64,000 bases of DNA. Origin: Camelus dromedarius (lineage: Eukaryota). Shown piece by piece: positions 1 to 49,270 of the stretch; position 1 is the first letter of the stretch, and the number at the start of each line of letters is the position of its first letter. The DNA is taken from assembly GCF_036321535.1 (NCBI RefSeq), contig NC_087436.1, forward strand, positions 7,378,001 through 7,442,000, read 5' to 3'. The notes beneath the pieces are model-generated. The model was not told the origin of the DNA. It worked only from the letters and a program-made list of their open reading frames with translations, and made no database searches. The translations under genes and the position numbers were made by a program.

Positions 1-889
1 ATGGTGTTATTTAGATCCTGCTCTTAAAACACCCCTCAAAATAGTACGAATCAAAAGTGAAGAAACACGACATCCTGCATACAGACTTTCATGATCCTGG
101 CAGAATTCTTAATGTATCTTTTGTGAAAAAGTTAACTTTGTTTCAAAATTAATTTCTCATCTAATACCATTGGTATTACTAGAAATTTCCTAAATAAGTG
201 TCTAACAAAATATAAATAGGTGACCCAAAAAGAAAGAATTCTGATTCTCTAAAGACTGACTTTGAATCACAGTTATCATGGCAACAACAAAACTGTGGCT
301 TTGCAAAATGATCATTTATTTTAGAAGCATGGAACTTCAACATTTTGGATCTTATGCGATATGACAATGAATCTCCTTTGAGACTGGTCTTGAATTCAGG
401 ATGTATTTCTGGGCCAAAATTGCCAGTTTGGAAGCAATTAACAATTTTTGACCTATTTACAGACCTCTCCAGGTTTTCTTCACTTTCACTTTATTCTTTC
501 TGTCTTTCGTCTCTCCATCCTGAGAAGCTTTGGGATGAGCTTTTCAAACTTTCTGACAAATGACTGCTCTGAGAGGAGACCACATCTCCTTCCTGCTCAG
601 AGAACGAGCTACTGTGTGTATGACCCAGAGGTCAGCCGTCAGAACTGGACCCAAGAGGCGTTTACTAAGCGTCCTCCAGTCGTGAGTGTGGGAGAGGCCG
701 CAGGGAGGGCTGGGCTGGGGTGTTGGGGTAGAGAGGATAAAATGGCTAAAACACATACCAAAATGGACAGAGTATGTTTTCAGTGTTGCCCATCCGGCTG
801 TATCTTAGGCTGGACATTGAAATTTCTCCATATTAATTCAGGAAAAAACCCTATAATTTAAAAACTTTAGACACGTCAAGATGATTGCA

Positions 890-7623: not shown

Positions 7624-8660
7624 ATGAGTCATTATTTTCCGTGAAAAGTGAACTTTTTAATGTAAGATCAAACTTAACTCCTTCTCTAGTCTATGCTGTT
7701 ACAGACCATGGTCTTGGCTTCATGACGGCTGGAGGGGAGCTGGTCAGGATTCCCTCTCTGTCCGGCCAGAGACACTACAAGTGTGACATCAGTGAGTGTC
7801 CCAGCGAAAGGAGAAATTACACTGTCCTGAGTCTTAAAACTCTTACCAAATGTTCTTTTACACTGTGGAAGGCTCAGACTCCTGTAAATCGAAGAAATGC
7901 TGCTGAAGTCGCTCTCAGGCTGCCTCCCCGGGTCCCCACCATGGCTTTTATGTCAGCATAATGCCAAGACACAAAGCAAGCGCGTGATTCTCAGCCGCTC
8001 TGAAAAAAGCCACTTGGGGTTTCTCTGTCTTTAAAATATGGCAAAAGTGATTTCAGCAAATTATGAGTCACATTAGTGCGAGGAGGTGACAAATTACAGA
8101 TGAAACTGAGAAATCCCTCCAGGAGAGGTTTCTAATAAAATTGTCAACACCCTTTTCGAGGGGCCCAGCTGGAGGCGGCCGCAGTCTTTAAGATCACACG
8201 GCCCCGGACTGCCTTTTCTCTCCTTTACGGAAGCACTAACATCGGCCACGGGTGGTAAGCAGCAGCCAATTAAGCTCCCACTTTGAAAATTAATAGCATT
8301 ATGCAGTGTGACAGTCTCCTGGTCCTGGCCTCTGTGTGTTAACCCTTCGGCCACGGTTACTTCTCTGCTTCCCCAGGGAGTATGTTTCATTCAGCAGCCA
8401 GGGCTGCCAGTGAGCCCGCCCGTCTCTCCTTCCTTCTCCCACTGAGCTGGGGCCTGTGTGAGCAGAGATCCCCTTCCCGGGACCAACCCCCCTCGCAGTG
8501 CCTGTCGCCTGCTTCCCCTGTGGACACAGGGGTCCACATGCGCTCTAGCAGAGGGTCATAGCGCGTGTCTTAGGTCCACACGTTTCCTGCTGGGGATTCC
8601 CGGGACCAGAAGGTACAAAGGTGACGTTCCATTAGCTGCATTTTCTCCTACGACCTGGAG
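7624..8660. promoter_or_regulatory. Candidate inducible enhancer (AP-1, STAT GAS, IRF-like, NF-kB motifs)
   Basis: TGAGTCA 7625-7631 and 8064-8070; TTCCGTGAA 7637-7645; GAAAAGTGAAC 7643-7653; GGGGATTCCC 8592-8601; raised GC/CpG at 8150-8660; no recognisable repeat. Confidence 0.4.
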
Positions 8661-9467
8661 CCATTTCCACTAATAAGACTGAGAGCTGCCTATTGAATTT
8701 AAAACTACATTATAATTAGTCTTCATATGGATCGCATAGGGGTCCTACCCCCGTTTCCTTCAGACTCTGTTGTCGTTGTCACTAACACACACGCCCCATT
8801 TCAAGCCACATCTTCACGGGGAAGTTTGGATGATGACAGTGAGCGTCTAGGTTGTAACGTTCCTGACCTCCACTCCCAGTTACCGTCCATCCCGTAGGTT
8901 CGTGGAAGATTAACCTTTGTGTTAATATTTTCTGTTTGGGGACTTCAGATTTTCCCATATTTCTACCACGTTAAATCGAATGTGATTCAGGGAGTAGGTA
9001 GCATTGGGCCAGGAGGTAAAAGTCCTATATTTGACTTCAGTGATCTACTTATTCAGGTTTTTCCTCCTTTCCTTGTCTATCACTGCATTTCTTTCATTTC
9101 AACAATATACTATGAGCATGGCCAGACCCAGTTCTATCTTTCCTGGTAAATAATCTACAGACTTTTCTGACACACTGCCGTTATGGTTCTTGGTCAATTA
9201 CTTCTTGTTTGGAGATGATTTCAAAGAACAAACTTTCACGTTATTTAAAAAAATGTCCACACATTTTGCATGATACTCCACAATATCCTTGTGTTCAGTG
9301 AAAAAAAAAAATTATGCTTCACATCACTTGCCATTCACATGTGCATTCTACAATGCACATCGTATTTATCTTGTGGAATTAGGGGAGGCACACGTGTTCC
9401 CTGTCATCTCTCCCTGCAGGACACCATCTTCACAGAGAAGCTGTGCACTTCCTTGCTCACTTCTGCG

Positions 9468-9505: not shown

Positions 9506-9963
9506 TTTGTCTCCCTGCTTCTTCACATCAAGTCAGCCTCATCTCCACTTCTTTTTTGAAGACTTCCTCAGGTCCCGCAGGTTGACAGGTCTTCCTCCCG
9601 CCGCCTTTTAGTTCTTAAAAATCTGAACGCTGCTCCACGAGTTTATTGGGCACCTGATTTGAAAAAAAAGAGAAAAACCTGCTTCTCGACTGTCTTGTAC
9701 ATTTCACCTGTTTTAATCATGGTTTCCCAGGTCGACGTTAAGTTCCTTAAAGGCAGAGGCTGTATTTTAAGCTGAATGAATGTCAGCAAGAACACTCCAT
9801 CCTCATCTGGGTAGGAAATAGGTTCTCAGTAAACCCTTTTTGAGTGGGTTAGTGGCTGATTGTGGAGGGTTTCTCAATTACGGGCATAAGAGTTAAAAAG
9901 GTGAAAATCAACGATATTTTTGTTTTGATAGTTGGACCTTCCTTTGGAAAAATAAAATGACAG

Positions 9964-10080
9964 ACAGATGTGTTTCTTCACAAGGCAACTCTGTGTTATT
10001 GGTACAGCAGGCTGAGGATTTCCAGTGGTGGTGATGTCTACACCTGGTGGGTTACAACTCACCACTGGATGTACTGAGAA
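9964..10080 (+). repeat. Left arm of 117-bp inverted repeat with internal hairpin
   Basis: Aligns without gaps to the reverse complement of 10910-11026 at 90/117 identities (hand count). Confidence 0.95.
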
Positions 10081-10909
10081 CACATGGGCAGAAACTCTTC
10101 ATTCCAAGCGACCTTTTTGTTACAAGAGTGATAAACTGTGCTTTCATTTGTATTTTTCTGGTTCGCTTTATTTAATTTCTTTTTCTTGTGTTAAAGAGCT
10201 CTTACGGACGCGTCACTTAAATAAATGATTCCACTGAGGAACAAGTTTAGGGTAAGGATGATCTAATTAATTTCACTCTGACTGCTAGTTGTGGTTAATT
10301 TTTCTGAAACCTCGTTATGCTTGTGGTCTTCCCGCACCTTTCAGTAGTTGGCTACATACTGGTTTTTTTTTTTTTTCCCTTCTAATAATTTTTGTACAGA
10401 TTCAGTCCACCTCATCAGGGCAGAATCTGTTCTTGCAAATACGTGTGTACCCCGCTGTGCTGGGGACCCTAAATACACAGATTGGCGTTCCAGCCTGAGC
10501 TGAGACAAGGCAGAGCTGAGCAATGAACAGTACACCTTCAGAGGAAAGTGCCAGAAGGCTAATCCCTTATTTCATACTCAATTTGCATTTCATAATAGTC
10601 CTCTGCCCTTGCGTGTGTATATAAACGTTTCCCTTTTCAAATGCTTTCACGTTATAAGCTTATTTCACCCTCTTTGGTATTTTGTTCCATTGGTTCCTGA
10701 CCTTTTATGATAACAGTGCCTCAGGTTGATTTTATAAACTACACATGACACTTGTAATTCAGTTTCTGTTATCCTTTGTGTCAGAGCAGTTTTAAATAAT
10801 CCTTTTATAGGAGAATTTTGCTTTTGAAAAACCAAACACCATTCTTCTCAGTTTTATAGTTCAGAAGGTTTTCTGTAGGCTTTTAAGTATCTTTAGCGGT
10901 TTATAAATT

Positions 10910-11026
10910 TTCTCAGCACATCCAGTGACGGGTTGTAACCCACCAGGGTTAGACATCACCGTCACTGGAAGTACTCAACCTGTTGTAGCCTCAATACCAA
11001 GTTGCCAACCAAAGGGACACATTTGT
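10910..11026 (-). repeat. Right arm of 117-bp inverted repeat with internal hairpin
   Basis: Reverse complement matches 9964-10080, e.g. 'cctggtgggttacaac' and 'cactggatgt' are shared. Confidence 0.95.
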
Positions 11027-11129
11027 GTACCACCTGTCTGCTCACCTACCTACCTGCCTCTCACCTCCAATGACTCCCGGGGCCGGGAGATGGAGTAGAT
11101 GGGACCCTGCTTGTCAAGCGTTACATGCA

Positions 11130-13355
11130 TCTCATTTTCCTCCTTCCTCATGGCAAAATCTCTGTTTCTTTGAAATTTGCAACCTCACTGCCCACAACTT
11201 CCATCAAACTCCCGACCCCTCCTCATTCACTGAAAAATCTAGCTCCCAGCTCCTGCAGTCTTTCTCTCTAGTCTCACCACACTCACTCTTCATGGTCAAT
11301 TCCACATTCACATGGATGATCCAACCACATGCTGGCCTTCCACGTCGTAACTCTGCTCATTTCCAAAGATCTGTTCTCCACCGACCTCGGTCGCGTACTA
11401 CGGCAACCCCTATTCTTCCACTTCACGTATCCTGGTACTTTCCGATTCCAAAACTCTTTGGATCCAGTCAAAACCTCGCATCCATTTTTATCTTCTATCC
11501 TCCTCTTACTGTTGCTTCCTTCACATCCATCAGAGAGTCCACAGTTCAGTTTTCTGCAACAATCGCAACTTCTCTGCCTCTTTCTTCCTCTATTTTCTCA
11601 ACTGTCAAAATTCCAGACTTGGTTTATACCAAATTTTTCACCTTTTCTGTGGCTTCCTTGGAAAAGCTAAGTAATTTATTTTTAAATAAAAATCATACGA
11701 CACTGTATGGTCTTTACAGTAAATGGTATTTTATACTCTTTATTTGTAAATAAAATTTTACAAATAAAATTTACAAATTTATGAACGTGTGTGCTGTCAT
11801 TTTTGGGTGGGGGTAAAATTTATAATAAACTTGTGTTTGAGATATATTTGCTTAGTTTTTTTTTTTTTCCTGGAGAGTTTAACAAATGTTGTCAAACATT
11901 TGCCAGTACAGTACTGCTAATATACATGTTACACAGAGCATATCCCAAAAAAGACCTCTTATTCCGTCTTCGCTGCCCTCCCCCAATCTTCCGCATCCTG
12001 GCAAATGGTGTAATCATGCTATCTCTTGGAAAATACTAAAATCTGGTAGTCATGCTTGGTTACCCCTTTTTCTTGTTTTTTACATCCAAACAATCAAGTA
12101 TGTTATTTCTACTTAAAACATAAATTACTCAGCAATTCAACTGTCATCATCTTAGTCCAGGGCACCTTTATTCATTGCTTAGACCATTGGAAAATGCTCA
12201 AACTAGACTCCATCCTTCTAGTGTTTTTCACCCACTGTGGTGATTTTTTATTTATTTTTTTAATGTGAATCAGATCATGTCAGTTCTTTCCTTAAAACAC
12301 CGCTGTGACTTCTCATTGCCTGTCATAAGAACTCATGCCTTACTTAGTCAGATGCACTTAGGCCGCGTGACTCTTTTTCTTGTCACAAAATATAACAGTG
12401 ATGTTATAAAAAGTCCTTCTTTCGAAGACTGCTGATACACAAAGGATACGCCGGAGATGATTATTCAGAAATGAGGCCTTGCTGATGTGTCCCTATAAAA
12501 AAGGGTAAGATCTTGCCAAGCCTGCATTAAATATTGGAATTCACAAATTTACTCCTTTTCTACTGCTCAGGTTGGAAATTTTCAGCTGCATTCATGTTGA
12601 ACAGCATACACTTCTCCAGTTTTCCCTTGGCTTAGACTATTTTTGGCTGCCTATAGCAGAAAGGTGAGTTTTTCACCAGAAGTCATGTTAGAACACCTTA
12701 TATTTGGGGTTTACTTGCTCTTTTTGCAGAGATAAAAGCACAGAGCTGGCTTTGGAACATGACGTGGGGTGTGTGTGTGTGTGTGTGCATGTGTGTGTGC
12801 GCGTGGTGGCATGCATGTGCACATGAGCAAGAGAATGAACACAAGTCTCTCATGCACAACCTTCCATGATAAGGACCCTGCTAACCACACCTATCTGGCT
12901 TCTTGCAACACTCTTCTTAGTATCTGACTCCTCCTTTTTTAAAATATAAAGTTTGGGTTCTTTCAAGGGTCTTTCACTTGATACTATTTACTCTCTTTGT
13001 CTAGAGGAGAAAAACGGAACATTCTTTCCTCCATTCTTGTACACCTGGTTCTTTATCTTTCAGATAATAGTTCCAATATCACCTTCTCAGAGAGGCTTTC
13101 CCAGACCTCCACACTTAAAAGAACCTCCCCTGACACCCACATTACTACCAATCTATCATCTCATTTGTTTCCTTTTAAATTGTGAAATTATTTCCATGGT
13201 TTACCTGTGGTATGTCTATTTTCTGCGCCGCACTACAGGCTTTATGAGGGCAATGATGTGGTCAGGACTACGCACCAGAGTGTTCCCCAGGGTTTACGAC
13301 GGACCTTGCATATGGCAGGTCATCAACTTAAAATTGCTGGGTAAGAGAATGAGTG
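11130..13355 (+). mobile_element. Fragmented L2 LINE, from endonuclease-domain remnant to 3' end, interrupted at ~12325-12830
   Basis: 'ggtcaattccacattcacatggatgatcca' resembles the APE-endonuclease GDFNIH motif region; L2 3'-region motifs 'cagatcatgtcagttc', 'tatcaccttctcagagaggctttccc', 'ctttatgagggcaatg'. Confidence 0.75.
12769..12804. repeat. (TG)n imperfect microsatellite
   Basis: 'gtgtgtgtgtgtgtgtgtgcatgtgtgtgtgcgcgt'. Confidence 0.85.
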
Positions 13356-15854: not shown

Positions 15855-16890
15855 CCTTTTCAGAAATCATTCTGTGGTTTCCTTTCATAGCTATGTTTCT
15901 TAACATGTTATCCAATCTTGTCCTTGCCCATCTCTGTGCCTTCATCTTTAATCTCTCCCCACAAGGTGTGTGTGGTCCAGTACCACTGTGGCATTTGGCT
16001 GCGAGCATTATGCTATTTTTGCATCACACTGTCTTTGCCAGTGTTCTTCCTCTATATAAAAATATTACCAAATCCAAACTCCTTCTGCTCGCCCCATGTC
16101 AGGCCAATAAACTGGGGGACGAAGTGTTTGTTAGGGCAAGGAAAAATGACTTTATTCAGAAAGTCAGCAGACAGAGAAGATGCGGGACTAATGTCCTGGA
16201 GAACCATCTTCCCCAAGTCAGAATCCAGGCTCTTTACATACTAAAAGGGGAGGGGATGTAGTTGCTTGTTGCAAACTTCTTAATGTTGGAATCCTTTGTT
16301 CTTGCAGCTGTCCATGTAGATCAGGCCATGGTGTTCCTGTAAACCTCCAACAAGACAAATGTTCTCTTTTCTGCAAATTTTTATCTTTATATGAATGGGA
16401 AAGTGTTAACCCTTAGAGGTCAGAGCCTTGAGGATGGGCTCTCCTGTCTATTTCAGGCTCTAGGCAACATCCCTTTACAAAAGGTGCAGAACCAGCATGA
16501 CTGAGCCCAGGAAACAGAGCACAGGGTTAGAGCTAAAGGAACAGGTCTAATATGAAATCATATTTTTCTTCCCTATTATAAAAATGCCTCCCCTACCAAG
16601 CATGTTTTAACTAGGTTAATTTTCTCTTATCCTTAGCAATTGGTGCAAGCATCAACTTCTGCAGAAGACTTTTCTTAACCTTTTGCAGTGAGTTTAATGT
16701 CCCTGGATTTTCCTAGAAACCTGATTATGCTTTTATCACTGCACATCCTATAGTTTATTATCTGTTTGCATTTCTGGCTTCATCACGAAACTATAAACTG
16801 TCCAAGAATAGAAACCATGTCATTTGAATATTGATCACTGTACTCCTTGTACTTAGCAAAATACCTGACACATGAATTGAACTTGGAACT
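15855..16890 (+). mobile_element. L2 3' region, interrupted by a solo LTR
   Basis: 'atcattctgtggtttcc...tccttgcccatctctgtgccttcatc' before the LTR; 'catcaacttctgcagaagacttttc...cttagcaaaatacctgacacat' after it. Confidence 0.6.
16063..16580 (-). mobile_element. ERV1-type solo LTR (518 bp)
   Basis: Termini decayed from TGTTA...TAACA; 4-bp TSD AAAA (16059-62/16581-84); AATAAA on the minus strand; collinear with the 45558-46075 copy. Confidence 0.9.
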
Positions 16891-19494: not shown

Positions 19495-19979
19495 TATCTG
19501 GTTTATTTTTAACAGCAGAGGAACAACCTTTCAAATCATTCGGTTCCAGCCAGTCTTTTTTCTTCCCCCTTCCTTTTTTAACCTTAAAAAGTGTTTAGGA
19601 AATGACTTATTATTTTCTTTTTTCCCCCTAAATATTTTCTGAGCCCTGTCAACTCTCTTTTCTCCTTTATTTCACCTCCTACCTTTTTTTCCCCCTATTT
19701 TTGATTCATGCTTTAATTTGATAACTTCTACTCCTTTCTTAACTTACTTGATCTTGTATTTAGGATAAGGTTACATTTCCCTTCTCCACTGCAGCCGTAT
19801 TTACTGCGGTTCTTTCAATAACTGTTAGTAATTTAACCAGGACTTTCCCCTCTTGTTCTTGGGATATAATTTCATGGCTTTGGAGGGGAATCCGTGCATC
19901 TTTTCATCTTTAGTGATGGGTCTTCCTGTATTCTCAGGACCCCTCCCCCTCCATGTTCCCCACCTGCTCCAGTTGGATT

Positions 19980-20350
19980 CCACTCCCCGCAGGTGTTCCC
20001 CGCAGGGTGGGTCTCCATCCTTCTCCAAGGAAGATGAGGCGGGCCGGCCCCGAGGTCTCGGGGGCCGCAGCACCTTCGGGTCTTTCTAAAGACCCTGACG
20101 GAGCACAGGCAGCCTTTCATGCCCGTGCTCCGGGACGTTTGCTAGTTACTCCGCCCAGAGTCGAGGCTTTGCTTTTGGGCGGCATTTTTTGGGAATATAT
20201 GAAATGAAGTCTGTGGGCCTTTAAGATCCTCAGGAATCCCTGTGTTTTCCCTCCACGTCCCCTCCCCGCGGCTGCTGCCACGCAGACGGGCTCTTCCGCT
20301 CACCTGCTGGGAGCTGTGGCCGCTGGTTGGGCTGGCCTCCCTCCCGATGC
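19980..20350. promoter_or_regulatory. Small CpG island-like element
   Basis: About 23 CpGs in ~370 bp of GC-rich sequence within an otherwise CpG-poor window; kB-like GGACTTTCCC ~19840-19849 and GGGGAATCC ~19885 just upstream. Confidence 0.6.
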
Positions 20351-26118: not shown

Positions 26119-27102
26119 GTTGCATTTGCGACGTATTTAAAATCAGTAGTGTTTTGCCAACACTGATTTTAACTACTCATGTCATGTTAAATAAATTCCT
26201 AAGAGGAAATTTAAAATTTTATTTTAATAATTATTTTTATAAATTTTGTAGAAGATTCTAAATGACCTAATCCTAATCTGGAAAAAGAAACCGAAGTTTT
26301 GTTTTTAGAGATAGGCCTCGAAGTTGAATATCCATCTGTGCTGATTATAGAGAGCCAATCCTGGTCATTCAGATTCCGGGCATCTTTTTCCTTTCTGCCT
26401 AAAATATTAGCTTGCCTGGATTCTTTGGATAGTTGCCTTAATTCTTCATTTCTCATGGGTTATTTCAATTCTTTTCAATTTTTTTTCCTCCTGTGGGTTA
26501 TTTCAATTCTTGATCTTAGTTTTCTGATCCTCTTCCTTTGGCAAACAGCAAATTCTCTCCCCTGCAAAATCCATTTTAGTGTCAGTAATCCGATGGTAAT
26601 GTGGCCCCCTATTCCTGTTTCATGGGCGGACAACCCTGTTGGAGATCACTGTCAACAAACCAGCCTTCCTGTTGGTCAGTCTGGTCGCCATGCTTACTGT
26701 GTGCCCAGTAGACCGGACCCTGGAGATGCAGAGGATGGTGACGGTATCTCGTACATGTTCAGTGTTCTGTATTTTTTCCTTCAAAAAACACTTTCATATT
26801 TGGTACAGTATAGACAAAAGAAGACATTGTGTTCTGCCTCTCTTTTTTAGCTTTGGATTTAACTGTGGCAGTTTTCATCATCAGAGATTGCAAATTACAC
26901 GTAGAAATGTGAGGATGGGGTGACTGAGCACTTCTGCTGCGAAGCATGCTACATCATGTCAGTCATGAGTATGTCCATTTATTCGGTAAACACCTGCTTG
27001 GTGCCACATACCATTTTAGATGCAAATATTTTTATCACAATCCTCTAGTTGGTGAGATTCCTTATACATGTGATTTTTAATGTTAAATGACTTTTTTACC
27101 CA

Positions 27103-45553: not shown

Positions 45554-45557
45554 CAAA

Positions 45558-46075
45558 TGTTACCAAGTCCAAACTCGTTCTGCTTGCCCCATGGCAGGCC
45601 AGTAAGTCAGGAGACGAGTTGTTGGGGCAAGGAATAGCGACTTTATTCAGAAAGCCAGCAGACCGAGAAGATGGGGGACTAATGTCCTAGAGAACCATCT
45701 TCCCCAAGTAAGAATTCAGGCCCCTTTTATCCTAAAAAGAGGAGGGGGTGTGGTTAATGGGTGCAAATTTCTTAATGTTGGAATCCTTTGTTCTTGCAGT
45801 TGTCCACGTGGGTCAGGTCATGATGTTCCTGCAAACCTCCAACAAGACAAATGTTGTTCTCTGTTCTGCAACTTTTTATCTCTGTGTGTATCTGAAAGTG
45901 CTATACTCTTAAAGGTCAGAGCTTTGAGAATGGGCTCTCCTGTCTATTTCAGGCTCTAGGCAACATTCTTTTACAAAAGGTGCAGAACCAGCGTGACTGA
46001 GCCCAGGAAACAGCAGAGAGTTAGAGCTAAAGGAACAGGTCTAACATGGAGTCAGGTTTGTTCTTCTCTGTAACA
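45558..46075 (-). mobile_element. ERV1-type solo LTR (518 bp)
   Basis: TGTTA...TAACA termini; TSD CAAA (45554-57 / 46076-79); same family as 16063-16580. Confidence 0.95.
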
Positions 46076-48782: not shown

Positions 48783-49270
48783 TGTAACCGAGTCCAAGCT
48801 CATACTGCTAGCTGTATGACAGGCCAGTAAATTGGGAGACAAGGTGTTTGGAGCAAGGAAAGCAACTTTACTCAGAAAGCTAACCAACCAAGAAGATGGT
48901 GGACTAGTGTCCCAAAGAACCATCTTGCCTGAGTTAGAATCCATGCTTCCTTTATACAAAAGGGGAGGGAATAAAGTCAGATATTTCCTGGTTCCAGTCA
49001 GCCTCCAGAGGGTGTACGTTCATTTCTTCCTTCCCGCAGTCATTCTTGGGTCAGCCTGGTCAGTATGTTTCCTGTGAGCTAAACAATGTTATTTTAGCTT
49101 AACGCTCTTTACCTGGGAGGCAGGGTTCCCAGAGATGGGCCAATTTGAAGAATTTAAGCTATAGGTAACATCCCTTTAGTGATGAACGTATAGCAAAAGG
49201 AACAGAATACAAAGGTTAAAATATAAGAAACAGACCCAATATGGAGTCAGATTTGTCCTTCTCTGTTACA
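48783..49270 (-). mobile_element. ERV1-type solo LTR (488 bp, related subfamily)
   Basis: TGTAAC...GTTACA termini; perfect TSD ATAC (48779-82 / 49271-74); both ends resemble the 45558 LTR. Confidence 0.95.

Follow-up and report, generated by a model that had tools for sequence, protein, structure and literature searches.

Two opposed copies of a hairpin-bearing 117-bp segment in a 64-kb window of the dromedary genome

In the 64,000-nt stretch of Camelus dromedarius DNA analysed here (the window), two copies of a 117-bp segment stand in opposite orientation, with sharp ends and a hairpin in each, and are slowly decaying. The origin that we favour, at a probability just short of even, is an old local inverted duplication, in which a hairpin-bearing segment would have been copied once by a template switch and would have been decaying since. 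The mechanism, the direction of copying and a lack of function are what we infer. The original 117-bp segment would already have held an imperfect 67-nt palindrome, and replication forks are prone to stall at sequences that form hairpins; a template switch in replication or repair could have produced an inverted copy in one step, inserted about 0.8 kb from the donor segment without a target-site duplication (TSD). Both copies would have drifted afterwards, the left more than the right.

Two inverted copies and their possible origins

The left copy (9964–10080, plus strand) begins with a 48-nt unstructured leader and continues into a hairpin, and the right copy (10910–11026, minus strand) aligns to it as an inverted repeat across an AT-rich spacer of 829 nt (10081–10909, no strand assigned). 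The earlier note had described a gap-free inverted repeat of 117 bp around a loop of about 830 bp, and both its coordinates and its counts were reproduced: the arms are complementary at 90 of 117 positions (77%) with not one gap, the inner 77 nt matching at 65 positions and the outer 40 nt at 25. Seventeen of the differences are transitions and 10 are transversions. That the inverted repeat is real and far above chance is confirmed by the arm-versus-arm BLAST score of 90.6 bits, against which 100 resamplings of the surrounding 5 kb under a Markov model reach 37.4 bits at most. Another 46 repeat pairs of the window together show 222 gap openings to 1965 mismatches; at that rate the complete lack of gaps is mildly unusual (P ~0.05 for all 27 mismatches, 0.12 for the core of 97 nt aligned by BLAST). 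All sampled words of 9520–12400 are present in 14 of 24 listed sequencing runs (five studies, one organism), and three of these complete runs, from two studies, carry no flag as a potential source of the assembly; their completeness argues against an assembly artefact, at the level of words and not of their order. In the six runs that are RNA or possibly RNA, a fraction of 0.05–0.36 of the same words is present, which does not amount to a sign of expression. The two ends of the spacer share no homology with each other, and two tested parts of it have no second copy in the 64-kb window. Nor do the arms look like a pair of protein-coding exons: their 27 differences fall by phase as 7, 11 and 9 (hand count) with no codon bias, and no protein matches them.

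Homology stops sharply at both ends of the arms. Anchored extension beyond them scores 0, inward as well as outward, and the outer 40 nt are themselves homologous, with none of 500 shuffles aligning as well. No third copy of the unit was found in the 64-kb window by BLAST, nhmmer or a covariance model; the best match to the arm model outside the pair (45847–45930, E 0.07) lies within a copy of an LTR-like repeat. This LTR-like repeat is present three times (16060–16574, 45555–46069 and 48783–49270), the first two copies being 85% alike. The two copies share their ends and lie less than 1 kb apart, while the remaining 63 kb hold none, a distribution that fits one local event better than two insertions of a high-copy element. 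Pattern matches in metagenome (0 and 46 loci) and viral (3 loci) collections were discarded, none of them extending past the pattern or matching the DNA of the window; these 49 loci are chance, and the collections, being non-mammalian, are silent on other mammals.

Excerpts of PMC8794818 and PMC10710096 describe template switching as a source of inverted copies, the events treated there being short-range; the jump of 0.8 kb is our own extension of that short-range model. Like the repeats described in these excerpts, the present pair is a reverse complement of nearby DNA with sharp ends and no TSD, and like the hairpins described there it has adjacent compensatory changes in its stem. In those cases, however, the inverted copies form the two sides of a single hairpin, whereas here a whole hairpin together with its 48-nt leader is repeated 0.8 kb away. 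Neither microhomology at the junctions nor an empty site was found, which counts against the duplication.

The same orientation, and the equal, sharp ends of the 117-bp arms, are also what terminal inverted repeats would present, and two inverted arms around non-coding DNA are the plan of long-TIR transposons and MITEs; Mutator-like transposons likewise carry long TIRs. The pair might accordingly be read as the ends of a non-autonomous DNA transposon, old and 1063 bp in length with long TIRs, an option raised in the earlier note that we regard as improbable. As that note had remarked, no TSD is evident at the outer ends: a script search from −6 to +15 nt around the ends of the pair, for exact TSDs of at least 5 nt or for 7 nt allowing one mismatch, found none, and around the single arms none exceeds background (best 7 nt and none, with 104 of 150 controls reaching at least 7 nt). 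Age can erase any TSD. Also unlike such elements, the pair has its least conserved sequence at the termini, the outermost 40 nt that a transposase would need (25/40), and carries a hairpin on the inner side of each arm; the window shows no second element, and the ORFs scanned contain no transposase remnant or other trace of coding. Camelid genomes do contain MITE families according to an excerpt of PMC8605555, in which MITEs are counted at 50–650 bp.

The arms lie next to other repetitive DNA. Directly beyond the right arm begins what we take, from the likeness of its motifs, to be a long decayed L2-like LINE (11030–13355, plus strand, ends approximate), apparently spanning the endonuclease region to the 3' end. 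Judged by the spacing of the endonuclease motifs, the next of them would presumably fall in the outer part of the right arm, into which the element might then extend. Together with the identity of the arms, which at 77% lies inside the 63–90% mutual identity of the repeat copies in this window, this adjacency is consistent with the arms being pieces of a known mammalian repeat. They could stem from two independent insertions of one mid-copy family, or the neighbouring L2-like element could have supplied its 5' end for one arm and an inverted piece of itself for the other. We consider this unlikely, since the window holds no third copy, the two copies share both of their end points, and the 117-bp unit has neither terminal inverted repeats of its own nor a tail. 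No protein search backs the L2 reading of the arm; the L2 protein and HMMER searches, which returned no match for it, are of low sensitivity, as they missed the adjacent L2-like stretch too.

The hairpin within each arm

The 48-nt leader of each arm is followed, at the inner end, by an imperfect palindrome of 67 nt that the earlier note had overlooked. The left hairpin (10012–10078, plus strand) folds with −28.0 kcal/mol (z −1.5) and ranks within the top 0.3% of 70-nt segments, and the right one (10912–10978, minus strand), with −38.1 kcal/mol (z −6.07), is the best of all 12,786 segments of this length on both strands of the window. In both copies it is the homologous strand that folds better, the opposite strands reaching −22.6 kcal/mol on the left and −31.3 kcal/mol on the right. 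The right hairpin comprises 27 pairs, a 4-nt loop and a perfect core stem of 11 bp (10959–10969 with 10921–10931); on the left the 11-bp core stem (10021–10031 with 10059–10069) is intact and the apical stem partly broken. Compared copy with copy, 19 of the 27 pairs are unchanged, two are adjacent double changes, three are changed on one side and three are broken, in a scoring that leans to the right copy, from which the structure was derived. All three one-sided changes retain G:U, on the same strand, and all three broken pairs are in the left copy, two of them in its apical stem. Elsewhere in the window, two adjacent strong hairpins occupy 20071–20140 (−36.2 kcal/mol minus, −33.7 plus), within a stretch rich in GC and CpG at about 19950–20350.

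Has the hairpin been maintained by selection? The pair could consist of two paralogous structured elements, the hairpin being selected as a pre-miRNA-like or protein-binding stem-loop and weakened on the left, and to this we assign a small though appreciable probability. In its favour are the rank of the right hairpin, the 24 of 27 pairs that are kept, with two double changes and three that preserve G:U on one strand, and the preference of both copies for the same homologous strand. The hairpin also differs less between the copies than does the leader (11 of 69 against 16 of 48 positions, Fisher P 0.044; P 0.011 for 12 of 77 against 15 of 40, with borders picked post hoc). When the same 11 substitutions were placed neutrally on the right hairpin, at least 24 kept pairs with at least two double changes arose at a P of 0.017. 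The value is 0.20 when CpG sites are given ten times the weight, since one of the double changes falls on a CpG that is found on either side of the stem. The fold energy of the left copy is matched by 11–13% of the neutral simulations. Only two sequences are at hand, with which a shuffle of the pairs, equalling the observed values in 125 of 500 trials, is uninformative. Selection on the hairpins is thus no more than hinted at, the changes between the copies having a neutral P of 0.02–0.2. Template switching in replication can, according to an excerpt of PMC8794818, create adjacent multi-base compensatory changes without selection. Neither double change in the core stem calls for RNA selection, since one of them coincides with the CpG just mentioned and a template switch within the hairpin can also restore pairing. 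Of the possibilities listed in the earlier note, that of a small structured element present in two opposed copies agrees with the anatomy in so far as each arm does contain a hairpin; any function of these hairpins would be hypothetical.

Comparison with known RNA families yields little for the arms. At the gathering threshold, Rfam finds in the whole window only four tRNA-like heads, all away from the arms, which look like SINE heads of the vic-1 kind and lend the window a camelid appearance. By E-value, the region and each arm give matches at chance level only: the best for the right arm has 14.3 bits against a threshold of 77, and Xist_exon4, a candidate for the left arm (9996–10099), was rejected with two chance-level matches of 9.6 bits against a threshold of 100. 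No tRNA or tRNA-derived SINE head is found in the arms, with 0 genes from ARAGORN and no match to the Rfam tRNA model. U1 stem II, tRNA A/B boxes, C/D boxes, a Helitron 3' end and an ERV primer site were also considered and dropped, having no support from Rfam or ARAGORN. H/ACA snoRNAs have two hairpins, an H box, an ACA box and a pocket 14–16 nt above the ACA. ANANNA precedes the hairpin in both copies; an H/ACA assignment was rejected, as the leader has no shared strong hairpin, an ACA follows the left copy only, and the pocket falls in the perfect stem.

Some features are those of pri-miRNAs. The stem-loop stands alone, is very stable and bulged, measures about 65 nt and has in either copy a UG at the base of its stem, and, as in repeat-derived pri-miRNAs, its hairpin adjoins an L2-like stretch; L2-derived miRNAs have reportedly been treated in an earlier study. 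In stability the hairpin agrees with a canonical pri-miRNA, with z −6.07 on the right and z −1.5 on the left. Excerpts of PMC5340965 give a stem optimum of 36 ± 3 nt and excerpts of PMC10710096 a loop of preferably 10 nt or more; a CNNC 17–18 nt downstream is a further criterion. In contrast, the right hairpin has arms of 33/30 nt, which just reach the optimal range or fall short of it, a loop of 4 nt, no CNNC at the expected distance and an implied precursor of only about 43 nt, and the left has its apical stem broken. Measured against pri-miRNAs, the right hairpin is a borderline case, and the left one does not qualify. Motif strings of the arms are absent from the readable supplement files of an alpaca skin miRNA study (PMC3508611), and six such strings are absent from the collection of papers searched, save for one occurrence in one paper.

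Pairing between the arms and the surrounding DNA

In a transcript spanning the pair, the arms would be expected to anneal, as in any inverted repeat. The predicted arm-to-arm energy of −157 kcal/mol on the plus and −147 on the minus strand outweighs that of the two hairpins (−72 and −76), with paired runs of up to 23 nt and 18 true mismatches, a strength that is the consequence of any 77% inverted copy. The 99 of 117 positions said earlier to be pairable in a plus-strand transcript were counted correctly (90 plus 9 G:U) and are uninformative, as a minus transcript reaches 98 of 117. Of the 17 transitions, 9 yield G:U pairs on the plus and 8 on the minus strand (A.C mismatches 8 versus 9); there is no strand bias, and 99 of 117 is therefore what neutrality predicts.

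Inverted SINE pairs in introns are ADAR substrates, and the arms would resemble them, if transcribed, in forming an imperfect duplex of 117 bp; they differ in being neither tRNA-headed nor repeated in the window. A long-range RNA duplex kept by selection, be it as an ADAR substrate or for the looping-out of a candidate 55-nt cassette (10197–10251, plus strand), is on this evidence a poor prospect, for all its predicted strength. The cassette is framed by an acceptor-like AG at 10195–10196 and a donor-like GT at 10252, which on a crude site score are among the top 103 of 8710 AG and the top 29 of 6594 GT, respectively; it contains stop codons in all three frames, such a combination is expected by chance a few times in 100 in an 830-nt stretch, and no host gene was found. 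The splice-like motifs pointed out in the earlier note are all present, namely an acceptor-like site at 10363–10399 (plus strand; T14 at 10363–10376, upstream of CTAAT at 10382–10386, and CAG at 10397–10399) and the donor-like GG/GTAAGG at 10250–10257. The acceptor at 10399 is ordinary, with 439 of 8710 AG scoring as high, and since the donor at 10252 lies upstream of it, the two bound an intron of 148 nt and not a looped exon; with the even G:U split, this leaves little support for the selected duplex suggested in that note. No further plus-strand donor is present in the listed parts of the spacer, which comprise all but one short part. The inner border of both arms is TTCTCAG, acceptor-like and opposite to the favoured hairpin strand (10074–10080, minus, with a crude site score of 9.7; 10910–10916, plus).

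A combination of the two kinds of pairing can also be envisaged, with opposed, selected RNA hairpins acting as a switch between self-folded stem-loops, one per strand, and a mutual pairing upon read-through that would loop out the 55-nt cassette. We judge this very improbable.

As for a host gene, homologue, HMMER, atlas and PDB searches gave no match, and neither 241 of 244 ORFs of at least 62 aa nor 35 of 50 exon-like candidates, a set that omits those overlapping one short part of the spacer, match Pfam at the curated cut-off. Several other stretches of the window look coding. An exon-like segment at 12572–12666 (plus) has strong acceptor- and donor-like sites and one open frame, with no Pfam match at cut-off; a purine-rich, coding-looking segment at 26214–26560 (minus) has an open frame of 82 aa and no homologue among longer proteins; and short, protein-looking frames at the start of the window (2–94 and 312–560, both plus) have no match in PDB or among longer proteins. 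The observed/expected ratio of CpG, 0.57 at 8001–9000 and 0.52 at 11001–12000, is above that of most of the window, and the repeat possibly lies in a weak promoter or low-methylation zone.

Taken together, the sharp ends, the lack of a third copy and of a TSD, the G:U split of 9 versus 8, the 17 transitions to 10 transversions, the three broken pairs out of 27 and the CpG-weighted neutral simulations count for a local inverted duplication. Against it count the better preservation of the hairpin than of the leader, the neutral P of 0.017 obtained without CpG weighting, the same-strand G:U kept by all three one-sided changes and the gap-free alignment over 117 nt (P ~0.05). If this duplication is what took place, the pair is of little import in itself and would serve as an example of compensatory-looking changes that arise without RNA selection. 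Should the hairpins prove to be kept in orthologues or in reads, they would represent a structured mammalian element absent from Rfam 15, in the form of an opposed pair in which folding of each copy on itself and pairing between the copies are mutually exclusive.
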